Shown: in pieces, positions 4,239 to 23,546 of the stretch | Layout: every line of letters starts with the position of its first letter | Numbering within the stretch: the first letter of the stretch is position 1 | Assembly (NCBI GenBank): GCA_027310625.1 | Contig: DAIDAM010000002.1 | Coordinates: 1,123-65,122 of the forward strand | Direction of reading: 5' to 3' | Source: a bacterium | GTDB taxonomy: Bacteria; Patescibacteriota; Minisyncoccia; UBA6257; 2-01-FULL-56-20 | Length of the DNA stretch: 64,000 nt | Made by a program: the position numbers and the translations under genes | Notes under the pieces: model-generated | Told to the model about the DNA's origin: nothing | Seen by the model: the letters and a program-made list of their open reading frames with translations, nothing else | Databases searched by the model: none

Positions 4239-4799
4239 TTAACTGGCTTTCAGTATCACCGCCTTGTTTTTCATATTCTCCAAATCCTTTTTCTTGAAGA
4301 CGAATTTTTCCTGAACATCCGCTTTCTGCCCGAGCGCTTTTGCGAGCGCATCGGGCTTTTTTGAAAAGCTCGGTATCACCGCCGCCGGTTCCATTTTTTT
4401 CACGAGCTTCGCCGCGTCTTCCTCCGACAAAAAATGTTCGCCGACGGGAACGAAAAGCACGTCCTGTTCACTCAATTCTTCGGCGATTTCCGGTTCCAGT
4501 CCGTTTGAAAGATGGCCGAGAAAAACGAAACTTAAACCCTCCCATTTCACGAGATAAACCGACTTTATGAATTTCGCGGTTGATTCTTTCGTCACAGGCC
4601 AGCCGCGCACCTGCATGTCTTTTGCTTCATATTCTCCCGGGAAACCGATTTCGTTTTCAGTGGGCATTTCCGCCTCCGGCGAAGCGATCGTCCTTAAAAC
4701 AACGTCGCCTTTGAGGCGGTTGCTGTTCGGGTCAACAAGAAGCGAAACATCCCCGCTCTGCAATCGGAAACACCCGTCGCCGAAGTAATTGATAACCAT
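4239..4799 (-). CDS. MBL-fold metal-dependent hydrolase (UlaG/UPF0173-like)
   Basis: 186 aa. The N-terminal GDGCFRLQSGDVSLLVDP is a typical metallo-beta-lactamase-fold start. Confidence 0.6.
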   Translation of the reverse strand: MVINYFGDGCFRLQSGDVSLLVDPNSNRLKGDVVLRTIASPEAEMPTENEIGFPGEYEAKDMQVRGWPVTKESTAKFIKSVYLVKWEGLSFVFLGHLSNGLEPEIAEELSEQDVLFVPVGEHFLSEEDAAKLVKKMEPAAVIPSFSKKPDALAKALGQKADVQEKFVFKKKDLENMKNKAVILKAS

Positions 4800-4884
4800 G
4801 ATTTTATGCTGAATTACCGCTCAATTTTACCCCAAAAAACAATTGATTTCAAATGAAAAATCGCGAAAATTTAGTACGCCCTTG

Positions 4885-5685
4885 TTATTTTTTCGCGGTT
4901 AAAAAGAACAATTCCCAGCCAAGTTCATAATGGCTGCCGACTTTCTTAAATCCGAGATACTTTTTGGCAATTGAAAACGATTCCTCTTTAGCGCATCTTG
5001 CGTTGTGTATGGTGTGAATAAAGTTTTTCGCTTCTTTTACAGATGAAAACCTCCATGGGACATAAGCAATTTTCACTTTTACATTCTCAAACCCTGCGTT
5101 TTTAACCGCTTTTACCAATTCTTTTTTCTTGAAGAAATTGTGCGGATGACCAAGAGGGAAGCAATGTTTCGGGTCATCTATAGAATGGAAATATTTTTGT
5201 GAAATTGTGCCGTGTAGCACGTCGCCAATGACTAATCTGCCGCCCTTTTTGAGGTTTCTATAGAAATACTTCAGCGCTTTTTTTCTTCCGTGGTCTCCCG
5301 TGCCCCTTCTGTCAAAGTGGTGGAGCGTAGCAAGAGACGTAACGACGTCAAAGAGATTTTCATATTTTTTTCCGCTGAGAAACGGTTTTTTAGGGGATAG
5401 TAGGATTACTTTTATATTCAAATTTTTTCTTTTACTTTTTTTAATTGCTTCTTTTATGCTGCCCGCGTCCACGTCTGTCGTTATAATTTCGCCGTTTTTC
5501 CCGACCGCCTTAGCCAAGGGAAGCGCAAGATAGCCGTTGCCTGTGCCGACTTCCCAGATTTTCATACATCTTTCCGGGGCAACCAATGAGAAAATCTTTT
5601 TAAATTCGTTTTCTCTTGCGTGCGGTTTTTCGGAATTCGCCTTTCTGTAATTTTTCCACCTAACCTTTATTTCTTTCGTTGTCAT
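4885..5685 (-). CDS. class I SAM-dependent methyltransferase
   Basis: Motif I VGTGNGYLALPLA plus RLVIGDV. The track ORF extends to 5787, but an internal ATG (MTTKEIKV..., at 5685) is the more plausible start. Confidence 0.65.
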   Translation of the reverse strand: MTTKEIKVRWKNYRKANSEKPHARENEFKKIFSLVAPERCMKIWEVGTGNGYLALPLAKAVGKNGEIITTDVDAGSIKEAIKKSKRKNLNIKVILLSPKKPFLSGKKYENLFDVVTSLATLHHFDRRGTGDHGRKKALKYFYRNLKKGGRLVIGDVLHGTISQKYFHSIDDPKHCFPLGHPHNFFKKKELVKAVKNAGFENVKVKIAYVPWRFSSVKEAKNFIHTIHNARCAKEESFSIAKKYLGFKKVGSHYELGWELFFLTAKK

Positions 5686-5768
5686 AACTTTAATCTCTAC
5701 CCTAACTTCCGCAATAAAACAAGCACCCCTCCTTTTTTTATCCGTCGAGGGAGTGTAAAATTTGTGCG

Positions 5769-7034
5769 ATGCCTGCGATAAAAACAATTCCGGAACTCTT
5801 GTCTTTTGTCTGGGATAATCCCCATTCCGATTTCTACAAAAAAAAGTACGAAGCTGCTGGTTTCACAAAGGGAAACGTTCTCAAGCCCGACAATTTCGCG
5901 AAGCTCCCGCCGCTTATTCGCGCCGAGCTTGAATCAACGCCGCCCGATGAGCGACTCTTCGTAAAAAAAGAAGACGTTGAATTCGTCGCCTATACGTCGG
6001 GAACGACAAGCGGAAATCCGCTCGTGATTTATTTTTCGGAGATAGAAAACCACTATTTTGATCCCACGCTCGGGACAGACGCTAGGCGAATTCTTGTAGT
6101 GCATCCTCCTTTGGCGAGGAATTTCGGACACACTTTTGTGAAGCAATGCCGCCAGGCGAAAAACAAGTGCACCCCGATTTTCGCCGACTTCCAGAATCTC
6201 TTAAACAGCGCTGTCATCGCCGCAAAAGTAAAAGCGGACGCAATTTGCACGCTTCCGACCCTGGCTTTCGATTTGGCGAAGCACATTGAGAAATACTACG
6301 ACCCGAAAGCGATAAAGCTCATCATCGTTTCTTCGGAAACCCTTACTGCGGCAAAGCGCGAGATTCTTGCGGAAAAATTCCCGAATGCCAAAATCGCAAA
6401 CGTCTACGGCAACGCGGAAGTCGGCCAGTTTTTTTTCTATCCCTGCAAGAAAATGATGGACGAAAAAAGCGACAAATTTCACGTTCTCAATCCTCCGATT
6501 ATGAAAACGGAGCTGGTGAACGGCGAACTTGTGATAACGTGCGCTAACAATCTTGCGACTCCGCTGATTCGCTATCGTACGGGCGACTATTTTGAGATTG
6601 TGGAAGAGAATTGTTCATGCGGAACCCCCGGACCGGTTCTCGCCATGTCCGGTCGCGACAAAATTGACAGACTTCGGATAGGAGGCGTGGAAATAAAAGT
6701 CGCCGACGTTGAAAAAATCTTTATGCCGATTCTCAATCTTACCGGCGACAAGTACCAACTCCACTTTTACGAAGTAGACAGCGATTCCGGGTTGAAAGTA
6801 AAGACGGTTGTAGAGATTTTGAAGGAAAGCAAGCCGGCGATGTTTTCGGAAAGCGACATCAGTTCTTCAATTTTGAAGCACCTTTTGGATAATTGGGTTC
6901 TCGCTCCCGGAACAACGTTGAGGAACGCTGTGGACAAAGGCAGTTTCACGTTTCCTGAAATAAAATTCGTTGATGAGTTTTCGCTCAAGAGCGGTAAAAT
7001 GAGACGGCTCGTCGGACACTTTGATGAAAAATAA
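5769..7034 (+). CDS. adenylate-forming enzyme of the phenylacetate-CoA ligase (PaaK) / F390 synthetase / CapK-like family
   Basis: 421 aa. It has the AMP-binding P-loop-like YTSGTTSGNPL and a PaaK-like C-terminal part. The substrate cannot be assigned from sequence. Confidence 0.65.
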   Translation: MPAIKTIPELLSFVWDNPHSDFYKKKYEAAGFTKGNVLKPDNFAKLPPLIRAELESTPPDERLFVKKEDVEFVAYTSGTTSGNPLVIYFSEIENHYFDPTLGTDARRILVVHPPLARNFGHTFVKQCRQAKNKCTPIFADFQNLLNSAVIAAKVKADAICTLPTLAFDLAKHIEKYYDPKAIKLIIVSSETLTAAKREILAEKFPNAKIANVYGNAEVGQFFFYPCKKMMDEKSDKFHVLNPPIMKTELVNGELVITCANNLATPLIRYRTGDYFEIVEENCSCGTPGPVLAMSGRDKIDRLRIGGVEIKVADVEKIFMPILNLTGDKYQLHFYEVDSDSGLKVKTVVEILKESKPAMFSESDISSSILKHLLDNWVLAPGTTLRNAVDKGSFTFPEIKFVDEFSLKSGKMRRLVGHFDEK

Positions 7035-18706: not shown

Positions 18707-20851
18707 TTATTGCTCTAGAGAAGTATCTTTGCTGATATATACTTCTCTTGGTTTAGCGCCTTCGCCGGGACCGATGATGCCTTTTTCCTCCATTAAATCA
18801 AGGAGGCGCGCGGCGCGAGCATACCCGACCTTTAGGCGCCTTTGGAGAAGAGAAGCCGACGCTTTTTGCGCCTGTCTCACCACTTCCACCGCCTCATCGT
18901 ACATTTCGTCGCCGTCCTCTTCAAGCGAGTCGTCGAAAAGCGAAACGCCGCCGTTGCCGTTCCCGTTTTCTGCCGCGAATTGTATTTCTTCTTCGGCTAG
19001 AGCGGCATTGTTTTCGCGGATGAAATCTGCGACTTTTTTCGTTTCTTCTTCCGAAATATAGGCGCCCTGGATGCGTTTCGGTTTGGAAAGTTCGGAGGAG
19101 ACAAAAAGGAGGTCGCCCGCGCCGAGAAGTTTTTCTGCGCCGGAGGTGTCAATGATTGTTCTTGAATCAACCTGGCTTGCGACCTGAAGAGCGATTCTCG
19201 ACGTGATGTTTGCTTTGATTAAGCCGGTGATGATTTCCACCGACGGCCTTTGCGTCGAGAGAACGAGATGAATTCCCGTCGCCCGCGCCATCTGCGCAAG
19301 CCGGACAACAAACCCTTCCACTTCGCGTCCGTAGGAGGTCATCAGGTCGGCGAGTTCATCAACGATTATCACTATATAAGGAAGTAATTCATCGCTGTTG
19401 GCTGTTGGCTGTTGGCTGTTGGCTTTGCCATTGTAGCTCTTGATATCGCGGCTGCCGGATTTTTGCAAAAGCTCGTATCTTTTTTCCATTTCCTTTATCG
19501 CCCAGCGGAAAACGGCGAGCGCTTTTTTGTTTTCGACAATCACCGGGCTGACGAGATGCGGAATGCCTTCGTAGATGGAAAGCTCCACGCGCTTGGGGTC
19601 GAGCATAATCAGTTTCAGCGTCGTCGGCGAATTTTTATAAAGCAGCGAAACAATCAGCGACTGAATCATTATTGATTTGCCGCTGCCCGTGGAACCCGCT
19701 ATCAAAAGGTGCGGCATCTTCTCGAGGTCGGCGAAAATCGGTTCGCCGGTAACGTCGCGTCCGAGCGAAAATCCGAGAAGCCCGGAGGAATTGAATTCCG
19801 GATACGCCATCAAACTGCCGAGCCGGACGAGCGCCGCCGCTTTGTTCGGCACTTCGATGCCGACGAGAGATTTCCCGGGAATCGGCGCTTCGATTCTTAT
19901 CGGGTGAGCGGCAAGAGCGAGCGCGAGGTCTTGATTTAGCGCCGTGATCCGCGACAATTTCACCCCTTCGGCGGGCTTGAGCGTGTAGCGCGTTACCTTG
20001 GGACCGATATTTATCTCGCCCATTTCCACGGGGATGCCGAAGCTGTCCAATGTTCTTTTGATGATGTTCGCGTTCGCGCGGAGGTCGCCGGTGGTGGGTT
20101 TTTCTACGGAGGATTTCAAAAGCTCGAGTGGCGGAGGAACATAATTTGCGAAGCTCGGGCGCGGCGTTCTCCTCGCTTTTTTAACCGGCTCCGATTTCGC
20201 CGCTTCCGGCCTCGGCTCGGGAATTTCCTCTTCCTTTTCTTCCTGTTCCTTTTCGGCGGCGGCGATTTTCTTTTCTTCAACGGGCGCAAGGAGCGGCGCC
20301 CCTTCCGGCGCGGATTTCTCCGGCCATTTTATTTTCAGCGGAGCGTTCAGCGTCACGAGTATCGCCGAGACGAAAATTATCGAGTTAATTATTATCGCGG
20401 CGAGATTGCCGAAGGGGATTTTGAGCGAACCGAGAATCACTCCGAGCCAGCCGCCGTTCCCCGAAGTAGCGATATCAATTAGGCCGAGCGCCGAGAGCAT
20501 CATCAGAAAGCCGCCGAGGAGCGTCATGCCGACGAACAATTTTTTCTCCGAAATCAGGAATACGCCCGCGACCGCAAGAAGTATTGTCGGCAGGGCAAAA
20601 TATCCCAATCCCAAAAGCGTTTCAAAAATTCCGAGAAGAAATTCTCCGCCGGGACCAGCTTTATGAAATCCGGCGAGAAAAAAAATTACGGCGAGTCCCA
20701 CGAGCGCAACCGCCCAGATGCTCCGCTTCGTTTCCGGATGGAGACGGTGTTCTTTCGCGCGTTTGCCCCCGCGGTTGCCGCCGCGTTCCGCGACATCGCG
20801 CCCGTTTTTATCACCGTTGTTTCTCGCCATTTCTCTAAAAGTATATTTCAT
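18707..20851 (-). CDS. ftsK: DNA translocase FtsK
   Basis: 714 aa with N-terminal transmembrane helices, a Pro/Glu-rich linker and the FtsK/SpoIIIE ATPase (LIAGSTGSGKSIMIQSLIVSLL). Confidence 0.9.
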   Translation of the reverse strand: MKYTFREMARNNGDKNGRDVAERGGNRGGKRAKEHRLHPETKRSIWAVALVGLAVIFFLAGFHKAGPGGEFLLGIFETLLGLGYFALPTILLAVAGVFLISEKKLFVGMTLLGGFLMMLSALGLIDIATSGNGGWLGVILGSLKIPFGNLAAIIINSIIFVSAILVTLNAPLKIKWPEKSAPEGAPLLAPVEEKKIAAAEKEQEEKEEEIPEPRPEAAKSEPVKKARRTPRPSFANYVPPPLELLKSSVEKPTTGDLRANANIIKRTLDSFGIPVEMGEINIGPKVTRYTLKPAEGVKLSRITALNQDLALALAAHPIRIEAPIPGKSLVGIEVPNKAAALVRLGSLMAYPEFNSSGLLGFSLGRDVTGEPIFADLEKMPHLLIAGSTGSGKSIMIQSLIVSLLYKNSPTTLKLIMLDPKRVELSIYEGIPHLVSPVIVENKKALAVFRWAIKEMEKRYELLQKSGSRDIKSYNGKANSQQPTANSDELLPYIVIIVDELADLMTSYGREVEGFVVRLAQMARATGIHLVLSTQRPSVEIITGLIKANITSRIALQVASQVDSRTIIDTSGAEKLLGAGDLLFVSSELSKPKRIQGAYISEEETKKVADFIRENNAALAEEEIQFAAENGNGNGGVSLFDDSLEEDGDEMYDEAVEVVRQAQKASASLLQRRLKVGYARAARLLDLMEEKGIIGPGEGAKPREVYISKDTSLEQ

Positions 20852-21041
20852 CCCGCACCTTTCACAATACCACTCTGCCTACAAAGGCGATAAATCCAAG
20901 TAAGTTCTCTTTACAGATTCAATGTCATTCCAAAAGGTGCGGGATTCAAAAACATCCATTGTTGAAGCGTTAAGAATGCAAAAGGCGCCGAAGCGACGCC
21001 TTTGCTTCTTTCTCGTTTTTTTCAACTTGCAAAGTCAGCGG

Positions 21042-21281
21042 TGGATCCGGAGGGCGAGGAAAGGCACAAAGGTTTAAAACAAACAACCGCCGAGGTTCAG
21101 GGATTTGTGCTCCGTCTGAGATCATCCCCGCGATGATGAGTACGTCGGTGCGAGGGAAGAGAAAAAACTCCCGAACCATTAATGAGAATTCCCTTTTCAG
21201 GAAACCTCTACCCGCCACGTGGGTAACGAGTTTTTTTCTCGCCTGATGACGAGAGAATGCCTGTCCTGCTCTCCGGATCCA
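21042..21281. repeat. inverted-repeat-bounded structured element, an RT-less paralogue of the element upstream of the reverse transcriptase
   Basis: An 11-nt perfect inverted repeat TGGATCCGGAG (21042-21052) / CTCCGGATCCA (21271-21281). Its 52-nt core at 21184-21235 is 50/52 identical to 22496-22547. Confidence 0.5.
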
Positions 21282-21415
21282 GTCCACCTTGCCCATTAAG
21301 AGGGCTGAGGTGCAAGCTTGACCCGTCTCTGTACAGAAACGAGCTGCTTGCGGGACCTACCTAAATTTTATCATGTAAAGCTGCGCAGTCAAATTTTTTT
21401 GATAAAAAAAGAACG

Positions 21416-22354
21416 TCAGGTCGCACCCGACGTTCCCGATCGTTTCGCAATCGCCTGGCATTCCCTGAACCGGCGGACGAGCTTAAGTTCCGTCGTGTTC
21501 ATGGCTCCAAGACGACGTGCGTCATGGGTGGAATCGCGGAAAACACCCATCATCCCTGCGAGCTTTCGGTACAGGTCAACGTTTCGCTTGAAGACGATGC
21601 GCGCGAGGCCGCGGATTTTTCTTAGGTAGAACCGCGGCAGCATCATGCGTGCCGGAGAATTCACGCCGCGCCACTCGAGGCGGACGCCATTCATCGTAAT
21701 CGGCCCTTTCTTCAGGTCGGCCACCGTTGACTTCCGGTTATTGACCTGAAATCCGGCTTCTTTCATCGCTTCTCTTATAGCCGCGCGCTTCCTCCAGCCA
21801 ATCGGTTGCTTCGCCGAGAACGACAGGTCGTCTAGGTAGCGGGTATAGATAAGATGATGTTTTTCGGAGAGCTCCATCATCTTCCCGTCCATCAGTACCG
21901 CGGCGTAGACGTTGAAAAGGTCGGGGGACGCAGGAGCGCCGATGACCAACCCGCCCTTTTGCGAAAGGCAGTACTTCGCGAGGAACTCCGCAGTTTCTTC
22001 TTCTTCGCCGAAGAGTTCCGGGTTTGCCGCCGAGAGGATTTCGGTAAGTTTCCTGCCGTCAACCGATTGGTAGGCGTTCATGATATCGGTGAGATAGAAA
22101 TACCTGTTCTTCAGATGTTGTCGGACGCTTTCTCTCACCGATTTCCCCGGTTGCGCGCCGAAAGCGTAATCCATTCTTATTTTCAGCTTCCGTAATTCAC
22201 AAATCAGGCGCGCGTGAAGAATACGCATCGGCTCATTCGGGTCGCCTATTGTTCTTATTTTTTTCGTGCCGCCGAGCGGATTCTTATCGACATACCGGAA
22301 AGTTCGGAATTCCGGTTTTCCTTCAATTCCTTCAGTCAACTTGTTAAGGTACAT
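21416..22354 (-). CDS. reverse transcriptase, retron-type
   Basis: RT motifs DIMNAYQSV (motif 1), GGLVIGAPASPDLFNVY (motif 4, GAPxSP) and YTRYLDDLSFS (catalytic YxDD in the retron-style RYxDDLxFS context). The ATG at 22354 is preceded by AAGGAGG. Length is about 312 aa with no maturase or endonuclease domains. Confidence 0.8.
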   Translation of the reverse strand: MYLNKLTEGIEGKPEFRTFRYVDKNPLGGTKKIRTIGDPNEPMRILHARLICELRKLKIRMDYAFGAQPGKSVRESVRQHLKNRYFYLTDIMNAYQSVDGRKLTEILSAANPELFGEEEETAEFLAKYCLSQKGGLVIGAPASPDLFNVYAAVLMDGKMMELSEKHHLIYTRYLDDLSFSAKQPIGWRKRAAIREAMKEAGFQVNNRKSTVADLKKGPITMNGVRLEWRGVNSPARMMLPRFYLRKIRGLARIVFKRNVDLYRKLAGMMGVFRDSTHDARRLGAMNTTELKLVRRFRECQAIAKRSGTSGAT

Positions 22355-22380
22355 CCTAACCTCCTTGTAGAAATCAGCGG

Positions 22381-22598
22381 GAGACCTAGGGACGACTTGA
22401 AGCGTAGAGCCAGACAACAACCGCTGAGGTCTGGGATTCCTGCCTCGGCCCCCGTGGCGGCACGGGTGCAGGGGAGAAAAGCCAAGACCCGTATTGAGAG
22501 TTCCCTTTTCAGGAAACCTCTACCCGCCACGTGGGTGACGAGTTTTTGCTACCCTCATTGGTAGAGCCAAGCGCGCTTCTCGCCGTTCCCTAGGTCTC
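22381..22598 (-). ncRNA. candidate retron msr/msd non-coding RNA: a 12-nt perfect inverted repeat bracketing ~195 nt immediately upstream of the RT
   Basis: GGAGACCTAGGGA at 22380-22392 and TCCCTAGGTCTC at 22587-22598. The RT-proximal copy lies 27 nt upstream of the RT ATG. The internal sequence is GC-rich with several hairpins (CCCGUG-CCGC-CACGGG; CUCUACC...GGGUAGAG). Confidence 0.4.
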
Positions 22599-22772
22599 GG
22601 TCCCGCCTTGCCCTGTAGCCGCAGGGCGGAGGAGCGAGAGATACAACTTCTCGCCGGGACACGTCTATATTTTTTCTGATTCTTCAACAAAAGTCAATTT
22701 AAGCAACAGAAATTGTCGGACAGAAAGTAGTCCAATCGTTCACCCTCATATATTATAATATGAGAACTTCCA

Positions 22773-23546
22773 ATGCTAAAACCCAAAAAATCCTGGAAAG
22801 AAAAGGAGCTCGTCGTTTTTGATTTGGACGGGACGCTGACGGAGAGCAAGTCCGACCTTGAGGCGTGGATGTCGCGGCTTTTATGCAAACTTCTTCAAAA
22901 AAAGAAAGTCGCCGTCATCGGCGGCGGAAGCTACAAACAATTCCAAAAGCAGTTCTTGGCGAAACTGAAATGCCCGCCGCTCCTCAAAAAACATCTTTTT
23001 TTGTTTCCGACCACCTCAACTTCTTTTTATCGTTACAAAAACGGCGGTTGGCGGAATGTTTATACGGAAAATCTCAAACCGCGGCAAAAAAGGAAAATTT
23101 TTCGCGCCTTTGAATATGCTTTCACAAAAATCGGCTACAAACATCCCCAAAAGGTGTACGGAAAAATAATTGAAGACAGGGGAACGCAGATTACTTTTTC
23201 CGCGCTCGGGCAAAAAGCGCCGGTTAAACTCAAGGAGAGGTGGAACAAAGAGAATGACGTCAGGCAAAAGATAATGAGGGAAATGAGAAAAAATTTGCCG
23301 GAGTTTGAAGTGCGAAGCGGCGGGCTCACTTCCGTTGACGTCACTAAAAAAGGAATAGACAAGGCCTACGGCGTGCGGCAAATCAGAAACCATCTGCATA
23401 TACCGGTAAAGAAAATGCTTTTCGTCGGCGACGCGCTTTATCCGGGCGGGAACGACGCCGCCGCGAGAAAAACAGGCATTGAGTGTCTTCAGGTTTCCGG
23501 ACCGAAAGAAGCCGCGAAGTTTGTGTATTTTTTGTTGAAAAACTGA
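22773..23546 (+). CDS. HAD-superfamily hydrolase, phosphomannomutase-like (HAD-IIB)
   Basis: 257 aa with HAD motif I VFDLDGTLT and the C-terminal VGDALYPGGNDAA motif. Confidence 0.6.
   Translation: MLKPKKSWKEKELVVFDLDGTLTESKSDLEAWMSRLLCKLLQKKKVAVIGGGSYKQFQKQFLAKLKCPPLLKKHLFLFPTTSTSFYRYKNGGWRNVYTENLKPRQKRKIFRAFEYAFTKIGYKHPQKVYGKIIEDRGTQITFSALGQKAPVKLKERWNKENDVRQKIMREMRKNLPEFEVRSGGLTSVDVTKKGIDKAYGVRQIRNHLHIPVKKMLFVGDALYPGGNDAAARKTGIECLQVSGPKEAAKFVYFLLKN

Follow-up and report, generated by a model that had tools for sequence, protein, structure and literature searches.

Characterised retrons combine a reverse transcriptase (RT), a non-coding RNA (ncRNA) and an effector, and orphan cases are treated as losses. 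The locus described here lies in a stretch of 64,000 nucleotides from a patescibacterial assembly (contig DAIDAM010000002.1, positions 1,123 to 65,122; hereafter the window) and consists of an RT gene and two copies of a structured ncRNA, all on the minus strand. It belongs to a large family that had not been characterised before and that occurs, as far as the loci examined show, in metagenome-assembled genomes (MAGs) of the Candidate Phyla Radiation (CPR)/Patescibacteria, and each unit of this family has two parts: an RT of about 300 aa and one to three same-strand copies of the ncRNA. The model we propose, to which we give a probability of about 60%, is that of an effector-less retron-type RT-ncRNA family that would probably copy the variable long hairpin of its RNA into a small DNA by retron-style self-priming. 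Searches of the available literature for retrons or RT-ncRNA systems in Patescibacteria/CPR yielded no description of this RT-ncRNA family.

The closest described systems are the retrons of types I-XIII (Mestre et al. 2020), such as Ec86/Eco1, Ec83 and Ec78. The family shares with them the match in RT sequence and fold, the size of about 300 aa and, as variants, the regions X and Y of the enzyme, together with an adjacent same-strand ncRNA whose ends are inverted repeats and which contains small hairpins and a single long one that varies. It differs from them by the absence of an effector gene in all of 86 loci and of a preference for any curated type, by an ncRNA that may lie downstream, on both sides or in two to three copies and often has its own terminator, by a conserved polypyrimidine tract, and by an extra conserved pairing, between RNA elements called Y and Z below, that vies with the inner stem; no G is conserved directly after the outer repeat, and the taxonomically labelled loci are CPR/Patescibacteria. 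A first-pass annotation, made from the window alone, had hesitated between an uncharacterised retron type and a related RT class using a similar RNA. This hesitation is still apt, because the RT is retron-like whereas the ncRNA departs from an msr-msd in its position, its copy number, its additional alternative pairing and the lack of the conserved G.

Two other systems come near to the locus. Type VI retrons (Retron-Vpa2; bioRxiv 10.1101/2025.10.22.683967) provide the RT model, RT_VI, that is marginally the best for the window RT in PADLOC, and they are non-canonical systems in which RNA structure and RT-DNA act in regulation; they possess, however, a helix-turn-helix (HTH) protein, and their hybrid RNA codes for a small toxic peptide, whereas no conserved small open reading frame (ORF) or HTH gene was found here. 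UG38, a class 2 member of the UG/Abi (unknown group/abortive infection) RTs from Parcubacteria and other CPR (PMC9226505), is likewise an RT of CPR hosts without an associated domain or gene. UG38 was nevertheless defined inside UG/Abi, whereas the window RT scores far better to retrons, and these profile scores make it unlikely that the two are the same family.

The reverse transcriptase and its lineage

The RT gene is delimited by the following features.

21416 to 22354, minus strand: RT gene, 312 aa, with a YLDD active site, S-V-R-Q-H in region X and M-N-G in region Y
22360 to 22366, minus strand: RT ribosome-binding site AAGGAGG, 7 nt past the upstream ncRNA tail
21409 to 21437, minus strand: terminator-like hairpin across the RT stop codon, 13 bp followed by a T run

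The ORF, its ATG at 22354, the AAGGAGG and the motifs quoted in the first-pass annotation (DIMNAYQSV, GGLVIGAPASPDLFNVY and YTRYLDDLSFS) were all found again in the sequence. An alternative ORF started by TTG has 334 aa, and the N-termini of the homologues line up with the ATG at 22354. Pfam recognises RVT_1 only, as a single domain.

A family profile built from 25 relatives was searched against the solved structures of the PDB. The best matches are the retron RTs Ec83 (E = 7e-29) and Ec86 (6e-28), followed by Ec78, Eco7, Ec67 and Kva2; the twelve closest solved retron RTs span E values from 7e-29 to 2.5e-19, and Eco8 is found at 5e-10. With the same profile, non-retron RTs appear at 1e-8 and below for group II, 1e-5 for Drt2 and 3e-5 for an RT of a diversity-generating retroelement (DGR). 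The alignments to retron RTs extend through the thumb, and the VTG of Ec83 and Ec86 lines up with the (I/V)(N/T)G of the family. The AlphaFold model of the window RT has a pLDDT (predicted local distance difference test) of 93, and its top Foldseek matches are the retron RTs Eco2, Eco7, Ec86, Eco8, Ec78 and Ec83. The hallmarks of retron RTs are NAXXH in region X and VTG in region Y, H and G being the most conserved residues (PMC7736814). In the family, region X reads N-V-x-R-H between RT2 and RT3 with an invariant H, region Y reads (I/V)(N/T)G with an invariant G, and the catalytic motifs are invariant; the window RT carries variants of both retron regions.

In PADLOC, all 25 family members tested match every retron-type RT model at about equal scores, and the window RT scores between 60 and 91 bits against all retron types. 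Its strong matches in PADLOC and NCBIfam are retron RTs only; the curated NCBIfam thresholds are reached neither for retron_St85_RT (89 bits, cutoff 235) nor for Ec67 (58 bits, cutoff 450), and Drt2 gives 25.9 bits for a cutoff of 390. A group II intron was rejected: no Rfam intron matches at E <= 10 and there is no maturase signal (TIGR04416, 23.9 bits for a cutoff of 300). Profile and fold comparisons thus place the window RT family in the retron lineage and, as the profile E values, Foldseek and PADLOC all designate retrons, outside the group II, DGR and G2L (group II-like) clades. By the same comparisons it fits none of the 13 curated retron types, since all 25 members match all the retron RT models about equally.

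A first search had returned 67 relatives with 34-55% identity, the named ones coming from Parcubacteria/Patescibacteria MAGs. In a library of 1.8 billion cluster representatives, 501 matches (clusters at 50% identity) were found at E <= 1e-30, of which more than 150 are full-length, about 300 aa. Only a single distant match (28% identity) was found among 2.9 million viral contigs, and a phage origin of the RT family is not supported. About 100 loci were collected for the comparisons below: species-representative genomes supplied 29 and metagenomes 69, and looking up exact proteins added a few. The genome titles name Parcubacteria, Kerfeldbacteria, Zambryskibacteria, Campbellbacteria, Andersenbacteria, Harrisonbacteria, Paceibacterota and "Saccharibacteria"; three records are labelled "uncultured Gammaproteobacteria", and the metagenome loci carry no taxonomy.

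The two ncRNA copies of the window

The features of the two copies are listed in the 5' to 3' order of the RNA.

22669 to 22697, minus strand: promoter-like site of the upstream copy, TTGACT-17-AAAAAT
22374 to 22627, minus strand: upstream ncRNA copy, from hairpin P0 to tail Z, with no terminator-like site before the RT ATG, reading through into the RT
22627 to 22610, minus strand: 5' hairpin P0, upstream copy
22587 to 22598, minus strand: 5' arm a1 of the outer stem, GAGACCTAGGGA, upstream copy
22553 to 22561, minus strand: element X, CCAATGAGG, upstream copy, pairing with CCUCA of Y; G-rich candidate branch site
22522 to 22544, minus strand: hairpin HP1, upstream copy, 9-bp stem and 4-nt loop CCAC
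22496 to 22520, minus strand: hairpin HP2, upstream copy, loop UGAAAA
22428 to 22490, minus strand: variable long hairpin, msd-like, upstream copy, base GGGTCTTGG/CCCAGACC
22481 to 22469, minus strand: polypyrimidine tract CTTTTCTCCCCTG, upstream copy, conserved, inside the long hairpin
22421 to 22427, minus strand: element Y, UCAGCGG, upstream copy, with alternative pairing to X or Z
22381 to 22392, minus strand: 3' arm a2 of the outer stem, TCCCTAGGTCTC, upstream copy
22374 to 22380, minus strand: tail Z, CCGCTGA, upstream copy, conserved
21365 to 21392, minus strand: promoter-like site of the downstream copy, TTGACT-16-TAAAAT, TG-extended
21035 to 21305, minus strand: downstream ncRNA copy, from P0 to Z
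21305 to 21291, minus strand: P0, downstream copy
21281 to 21268, minus strand: a1, downstream copy
21250 to 21238, minus strand: X region, downstream copy
21232 to 21210, minus strand: HP1, downstream copy
21208 to 21184, minus strand: HP2, downstream copy
21177 to 21094, minus strand: long hairpin, downstream copy
21169 to 21151, minus strand: polypyrimidine tract, downstream copy
21093 to 21087, minus strand: Y, TCGGCGG, downstream copy
21055 to 21042, minus strand: a2, downstream copy
21041 to 21035, minus strand: Z, CCGCTGA, downstream copy
20978 to 21005, minus strand: terminator-like hairpin past the downstream copy

The 12-nt perfect inverted repeat from which the first-pass annotation started was found again at 22598-22587 and 22392-22381, its arms separated by 194 nt; its RT-proximal arm is indeed close to the RT, at a measured gap of 26 nt from the ATG instead of the 27 nt first given. 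The bracketed stretch is GC-rich as described (59.6% against 48.7% for the whole window) and its fold energy lies 4.7 standard deviations below that of shuffled sequences. A perfect 12-nt inverted repeat in 2.7 kb is only marginally beyond chance (about 0.2 expected, by estimate), and it is the comparison of related ncRNA copies, not the single repeat, that makes the upstream inverted repeat solid. The upstream copy runs straight into the RT ribosome-binding site. The association of the ncRNA with the 5' side of the RT alone does not hold: the earlier description had overlooked the second copy, which sits at about 21358-20978, between the RT stop codon and ftsK, and the position of the ncRNA varies through the family.

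The inverted repeat of the downstream copy, TGGATCCGGAGAGC / GCCCTCCGGATCCA, differs in sequence from the upstream one. The two copies share a 90-nt core, 80% identical and including a stretch of 36 identical nt, outside which they cannot be aligned, each having its own compensated stems. HP1 and HP2 are nearly identical between them and the remainder has diverged. Two ORFs of 64 and 108 aa on the minus strand (22336-22530 and 20970-21296) overlap the copies and share the peptide VAGRGFLKRE(L/F)S, since it is the conserved core of the RNA that is translated in each; they may be listed as hypothetical proteins by automatic annotation.

A structured RNA family beside the reverse transcriptase

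The closest relatives of the window RT are accompanied by the same element with different stem sequences. A single-sequence nhmmer search with the window ncRNA found no match in the first 29 loci, and a rigid hairpin-loop pattern recovered the closest relatives only; profile nhmmer and then covariance models were required. The first model, R1, describes the ncRNA core (two hairpins, 89 positions), a second-round model, R2, added loci, and two more came from the analysis of the tail, so that the core is found beside the RT in 53 distinct loci among the hundred or so collected. Homologous RTs carry the same repeat-bounded RNA. The matches of the core model adjoin the RT, and all except three weak ones (E >= 0.006) lie on its strand; in the whole window the covariance model finds no copy beyond the two described above. 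In Rfam, only tRNAs pass the gathering score in the window and nothing meaningful appears at E <= 10 over 20850-22780. By these searches, the ncRNA is a conserved structured RNA without Rfam counterpart.

The RNA has a total length of about 150-450 nt. Its 5' part comprises an optional hairpin, the arm a1, a linker that often pairs with the 3' linker, the element X and an A-rich spacer; the middle part is formed by HP1 (9-bp stem, 4-nt loop), HP2 and the long hairpin domain; Y, a linker of 10-55 nt, the arm a2 and, directly after it, the tail Z (CCGCUGA) complete the 3' part. The consensus of X is CC(A/G)NUGAGG and that of Y is CCUCAGCGG. The long hairpin, of 32-265 nt, is self-complementary and variable in sequence, with a semi-conserved base GGUUCGGG/CCCGAACC. 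Just inside its 5' base lies a polypyrimidine tract of consensus CUUUUUCUYUU, present in nearly every copy, which shows no preference for a paired or unpaired state in the predicted folds.

Compensatory changes and the two alternative pairings of Y

Full-length copies aligned with MAFFT had their sequence-free stems misaligned, hence the modules were anchored by position-weight motifs picked independently of their partners, and pairs were counted on the ungapped module alignment. Because this alignment is constructed and a1 was located by pairing, a decoy-anchor control was added. Minimum-free-energy folds of single copies fail to reproduce the conserved HP1 and were not used as evidence.

The two small hairpins are backed by compensatory changes. 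In HP1, double-sided changes occur at 9 of 9 pairs, 95% of the cells are paired and none of 500 shuffles matches the score; slid registers are 41-55% paired. The outer stem a1:a2 measures 10-19 bp in 49 copies, has no sequence conservation and ends exactly at Z; 98.8% of its cells are paired and all 10 pairs show double-sided changes. The score of the helix anchored at Z has a median of 30 in these 49 copies, against 24.6 for the 99th percentile of the decoy anchors. The conserved fold between the inverted repeats thus has strong compensatory support. The topology, as read from the alignments, is that of a retron msr-msd: a long, interrupted stem, formed by a1:a2 on the outside and by X (CUGAGG) with Y (CCUCAG) on the inside, closes off the two small hairpins and the single long hairpin, which varies in length and sequence.

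Element Y has two possible partners. Y:Z pairs over 7 positions, with a core that is 88-100% paired, double-sided changes at 7 of 8 pairs and no equal among 500 shuffles; own partners outscore swapped ones in all of 2000 permutations. Among the independent compensatory variants are UUAGCG/CGCUAA, UCAGCGA/UCGCUGA, UCAACGA/UCGUUGA, CAGCA/UGCUG, UUAGCU/AGCUAA, CUUCAGU/ACUGAAG and CCCCAAUA/UAUUGGGG. X:Y is 77.5% paired, with some compensation (CUGAGA/UCUCAG and UUGAAG/CUUCAG for example). The two helices are mutually exclusive because both use the same bases of Y, and for this reason X and Z are direct repeats competing for Y. X:Y is nested and continues the outer stem toward a three-way junction, whereas Y:Z crosses a1:a2 and would stack on the outer end of that stem in a pseudoknot-like manner.

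Arrangement of the copies and expression signals

Of the 53 loci, 27 have a single ncRNA upstream of the RT and 6 (L001, L002, L005, L007, L011 and L051) have two or three tandem copies there; 16 have a single ncRNA downstream, L062 has two downstream, and the remaining 3 (the window, L004 and L068) have copies flanking the RT on each side; the contigs being truncated, these counts are lower bounds. The three tandem copies of L005 lie at 4851-4939, 5260-5345 and 5606-5694, and L068 has copies at 1726-1816, 2798-2884 and 4362-4460, two upstream and one downstream of its RT. A terminator-like hairpin is found 3-68 nt past Z in 25 of the 28 copies that are not followed by the RT, and also in 10 of 21 upstream copies that are no more than 150 nt away from the start of the RT. 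Roughly a dozen copies have the RT start 14-34 nt past Z without an intervening terminator. These terminator-like sites and the placement across the family suggest that the ncRNA is usually a discrete small-RNA gene able to act in trans.

No recurrent partner gene

The first-pass annotation had noticed no effector gene beside the window RT, and this absence extends to 86 distinct loci. When the ORFs of 80 aa or more lying up to 4 kb from the RT were clustered across these loci, one family of 7 loci emerged, all others being present in 3 or fewer. This only recurrent neighbour (7 of 86 loci, in a syntenic subclade) is a multi-pass, permease-like membrane protein, encoded directly upstream of the RT in L004, L008, L043, L050 and L053, where it ends 90-390 nt before the RT, and about 2 kb upstream in L022 and L090; we judge it to reflect subclade synteny. 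Clustering of ORFs of 25-110 aa gave only translations of the RNA core among near-identical loci. A conserved neighbour or small-ORF partner was rejected on the basis of these clusterings, and the genomic context differs at nearly every locus.

Proposed mechanism

In the model that we favour, the RT would recognise HP1 and HP2, a role suggested by the near identity of these hairpins between the window copies while the rest has diverged. It would reverse-transcribe the long hairpin from a start beside Y, most likely primed by the 2'-OH of one of the Gs of X, the G-rich element with which the closing stem ends on its inner side; the polypyrimidine tract would mark the far end of the template and the product would be a small hairpin DNA. 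The tail Z would compete with X for Y and generate two exclusive RNA states, which may gate the initiation as an on/off switch. As there is no effector gene, the function would be delivered by the RT-DNA/RNA complex or, in trans, by a factor of the host. The window RT would serve two RNAs with different long hairpins, the upstream one co-transcribed with it and the downstream one expressed from its own promoter, and each would give a different DNA. By analogy, the function is most plausibly anti-phage or another accessory role, to which the patchy distribution and the changing genomic context point.

Several observations weigh against this model. The steps of the DNA copy are all inferred, and the defence role has analogy and a patchy, context-free distribution as its sole support. 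The covariation of X:Y is modest and gives weaker support than that of Y:Z, and in 37 of 49 copies the duplex of higher stability is Y:Z, so that the ground state may be other than the nested, retron-like one. The nucleotide that follows the outer a1 arm is A in 20, U in 15, G in 9 and C in 5 of the 49 copies, without a conserved G; X ends in conserved Gs (CUGAGG), but within this preserved G-rich motif no G is invariant. At least 17 loci have a downstream-only ncRNA, often with its own terminator-like site, unlike canonical retron operons, and the core model has no match beside those RT homologues that diverge most (38% identity or less). Finally, the ncRNA of L032 (4846-4992, identical in L033) keeps X, HP1, HP2, the 5' base of the long hairpin, a2 and Z, and lacks the rest of the long hairpin, Y and the linker, while its RT (P0005) retains all the catalytic motifs; this deletion variant is present in two assemblies.

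Alternative explanations

The RT, although of retron lineage, could follow the logic of the defence-associated reverse transcriptases DRT2 and DRT9, the nucleic-acid product being itself the effector: Z would pair with Y and prime after 3' processing, with a 3'-5' linkage, and either the direct repeats X and Z (CCRCUGA) would allow template jumping and the formation of concatemers, or the U-rich tract would template a reiterative purine-rich DNA. The family has in common with both systems that it consists of an RT and an ncRNA only (PMC12039810; PMC12483538). It also resembles DRT2 by a pseudoknot-type pairing near the 3' region of the RNA and by short direct repeats, here X and Z, around a template-like region, and DRT9 (UG28), whose ncRNA has a universally conserved U-rich tract (PMC12483538), by the U-rich tract of nearly every copy. 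Moreover, among the long-range pairings Y:Z comes second in support, behind the outer stem only; it usually exceeds X:Y in stability and forms a pseudoknot-like coaxial extension of a1:a2, and the ncRNA is usually an independent transcription unit. The RT, however, lies outside the UG/Abi lineage of DRT2, as its Drt2 score of 25.9 bits indicates, differs from that of DRT9 in lineage and size, and has no evident C-terminal tyrosine tail, although none was specifically looked for; the tract is mixed C/U and lies inside the hairpin domain; the template-like region is a variable, self-complementary, msd-like hairpin; and the RNA continues past Z into a terminator hairpin or into the RT gene, so that its primary 3' end is not at Z and processing would be needed. 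The never-ending ORF of DRT2 is also absent: only 8 of 49 circularised X-to-Z units are stop-free, without consistency of strand or frame and without a bias for multiples of 3, and a Neo-like gene synthesis of the DRT2 type was rejected on these grounds. We consider this logic, the main rival of our model, unlikely. It is doubtful, too, that a retron-lineage RT has turned into a self-sufficient two-component system, convergent with DRT2/DRT9, whose entire machinery would be the RNA and its DNA copy, in which a bistable Y would gate a priming that starts perhaps from the 3' region of the RNA instead of a branched G, and in which the DNA product would be the effector or have a non-defence role in these genome-reduced CPR bacteria. 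The candidate products would then be a hairpin DNA, concatemers formed through the X/Z direct repeats or a purine-rich DNA copied from the U-rich tract, and several RNA genes per RT would give several products.

The locus could also be a conventional retron that has lost its effector or keeps the effector gene at another place in the genome, an orphan that works with a partner in trans or is decaying. Orphans without associated protein are known within the characterised types (PMC7736814), the L032/L033 lineage has a truncated ncRNA, and our view of the neighbourhood spans 3-6 kb on either side of each RT; but the absence of a partner is family-wide (86 loci, hundreds of clusters at 50% identity) instead of limited to a few members here and there, the catalytic motifs do not vary, strong selection acts on the structure of the RNA and the RT favours no effector-defined retron type, all of which makes such an orphan improbable. 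A mobile retroelement, whose flanking RNA-gene copies would act like long terminal repeats around the RT, is suggested by the direct repeats that flank the RT in the window, L004 and L068, and by a genomic context that changes at nearly every locus. It is very improbable in view of the loci with a single copy or a tandem on one side, which are the majority, of window copies that are old, with a core only 80% identical and nothing alignable outside it, and whose stems are separately compensated, of the lack of an integrase or endonuclease domain in Pfam and of the lack of additional ncRNA copies in the 64-kb window. About 80% of CPR RTs are DGR RTs (PMC8632793) and the two repeats of the window share a 90-nt core overlapped by spurious ORFs of 64 and 108 aa, which could evoke a DGR with its template and variable repeats, or repeats encoding a small protein. 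The 18 mismatches between the copies are, however, of all kinds, with an A in 2 cases upstream and 3 downstream, neither copy lies inside a conserved protein gene, and the DGR RT is matched by the family profile at 3e-5 against 7e-29 for retron RTs; the peptides are conserved only among near-identical loci whereas the base pairs covary. The mismatch spectrum and the covariation led us to reject a DGR, and the covariation with unconserved peptides a small protein, and we give hardly any credence to either.

Implications of the family

The family is large (hundreds of clusters at 50% identity), apparently effector-less, and can carry several RNA genes for a single RT. Provided that it is functional, RT-DNA of the retron type may do its work with no dedicated protein effector or, alternatively, CPR bacteria may use reverse transcription beyond a defence of the toxin-antitoxin style. 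The ncRNA adds a new structured RNA family, whose alternative pairing, backed by covariation, makes the hypothesis of a conformational switch directly testable. In addition, compact RTs of 300 aa with short, modular, trans-acting template RNAs may interest those who develop retron-based DNA writing.

Neighbouring genes and minor observations

As the first-pass annotation had it, the neighbours of the RT are ftsK and a hydrolase of the haloacid dehalogenase (HAD) family: Pfam recognises FtsK at 18707-20851 and a HAD/phosphomannomutase (PMM)-type hydrolase at 22773-23546, on the opposite strand. The ftsK leader contains a 13-nt perfect inverted repeat, ATCCCGCACCTTT / AAAGGTGCGGGAT, at 20850-20862 and 20933-20945, whose downstream arm in the ftsK mRNA overlaps the ribosome-binding and start region (aaaggtgcgggATG, ATG 20851); it may be a translational control hairpin.

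In L030 (about 2370-2800), L032 (about 4450-4800) and L036, a gene for a bacterial RNase P RNA (GAGGAAAGTCCG ... ACAGAATTCGGCTTAT) immediately precedes the ncRNA and has an RNase H gene on its own upstream side. The multicopy single-stranded DNA (msDNA) of retrons is matured by RNase H; this synteny is probably coincidental. In L034, a short tandem array of GTCATCGTCATT-like units occupies the interval from the RT to tsaD, downstream of the RT (about 6010-6100). Finally, the Logan contig SRR5161795_31633 (L106), of 1336 nt, corresponds to window positions 22530-21195 and holds exactly the RT, both of its ends falling inside the stretch common to the ncRNA copies. A circular molecule was rejected for this contig, a repeat of more than 31 nt that breaks the assembly graph accounting for its ends.

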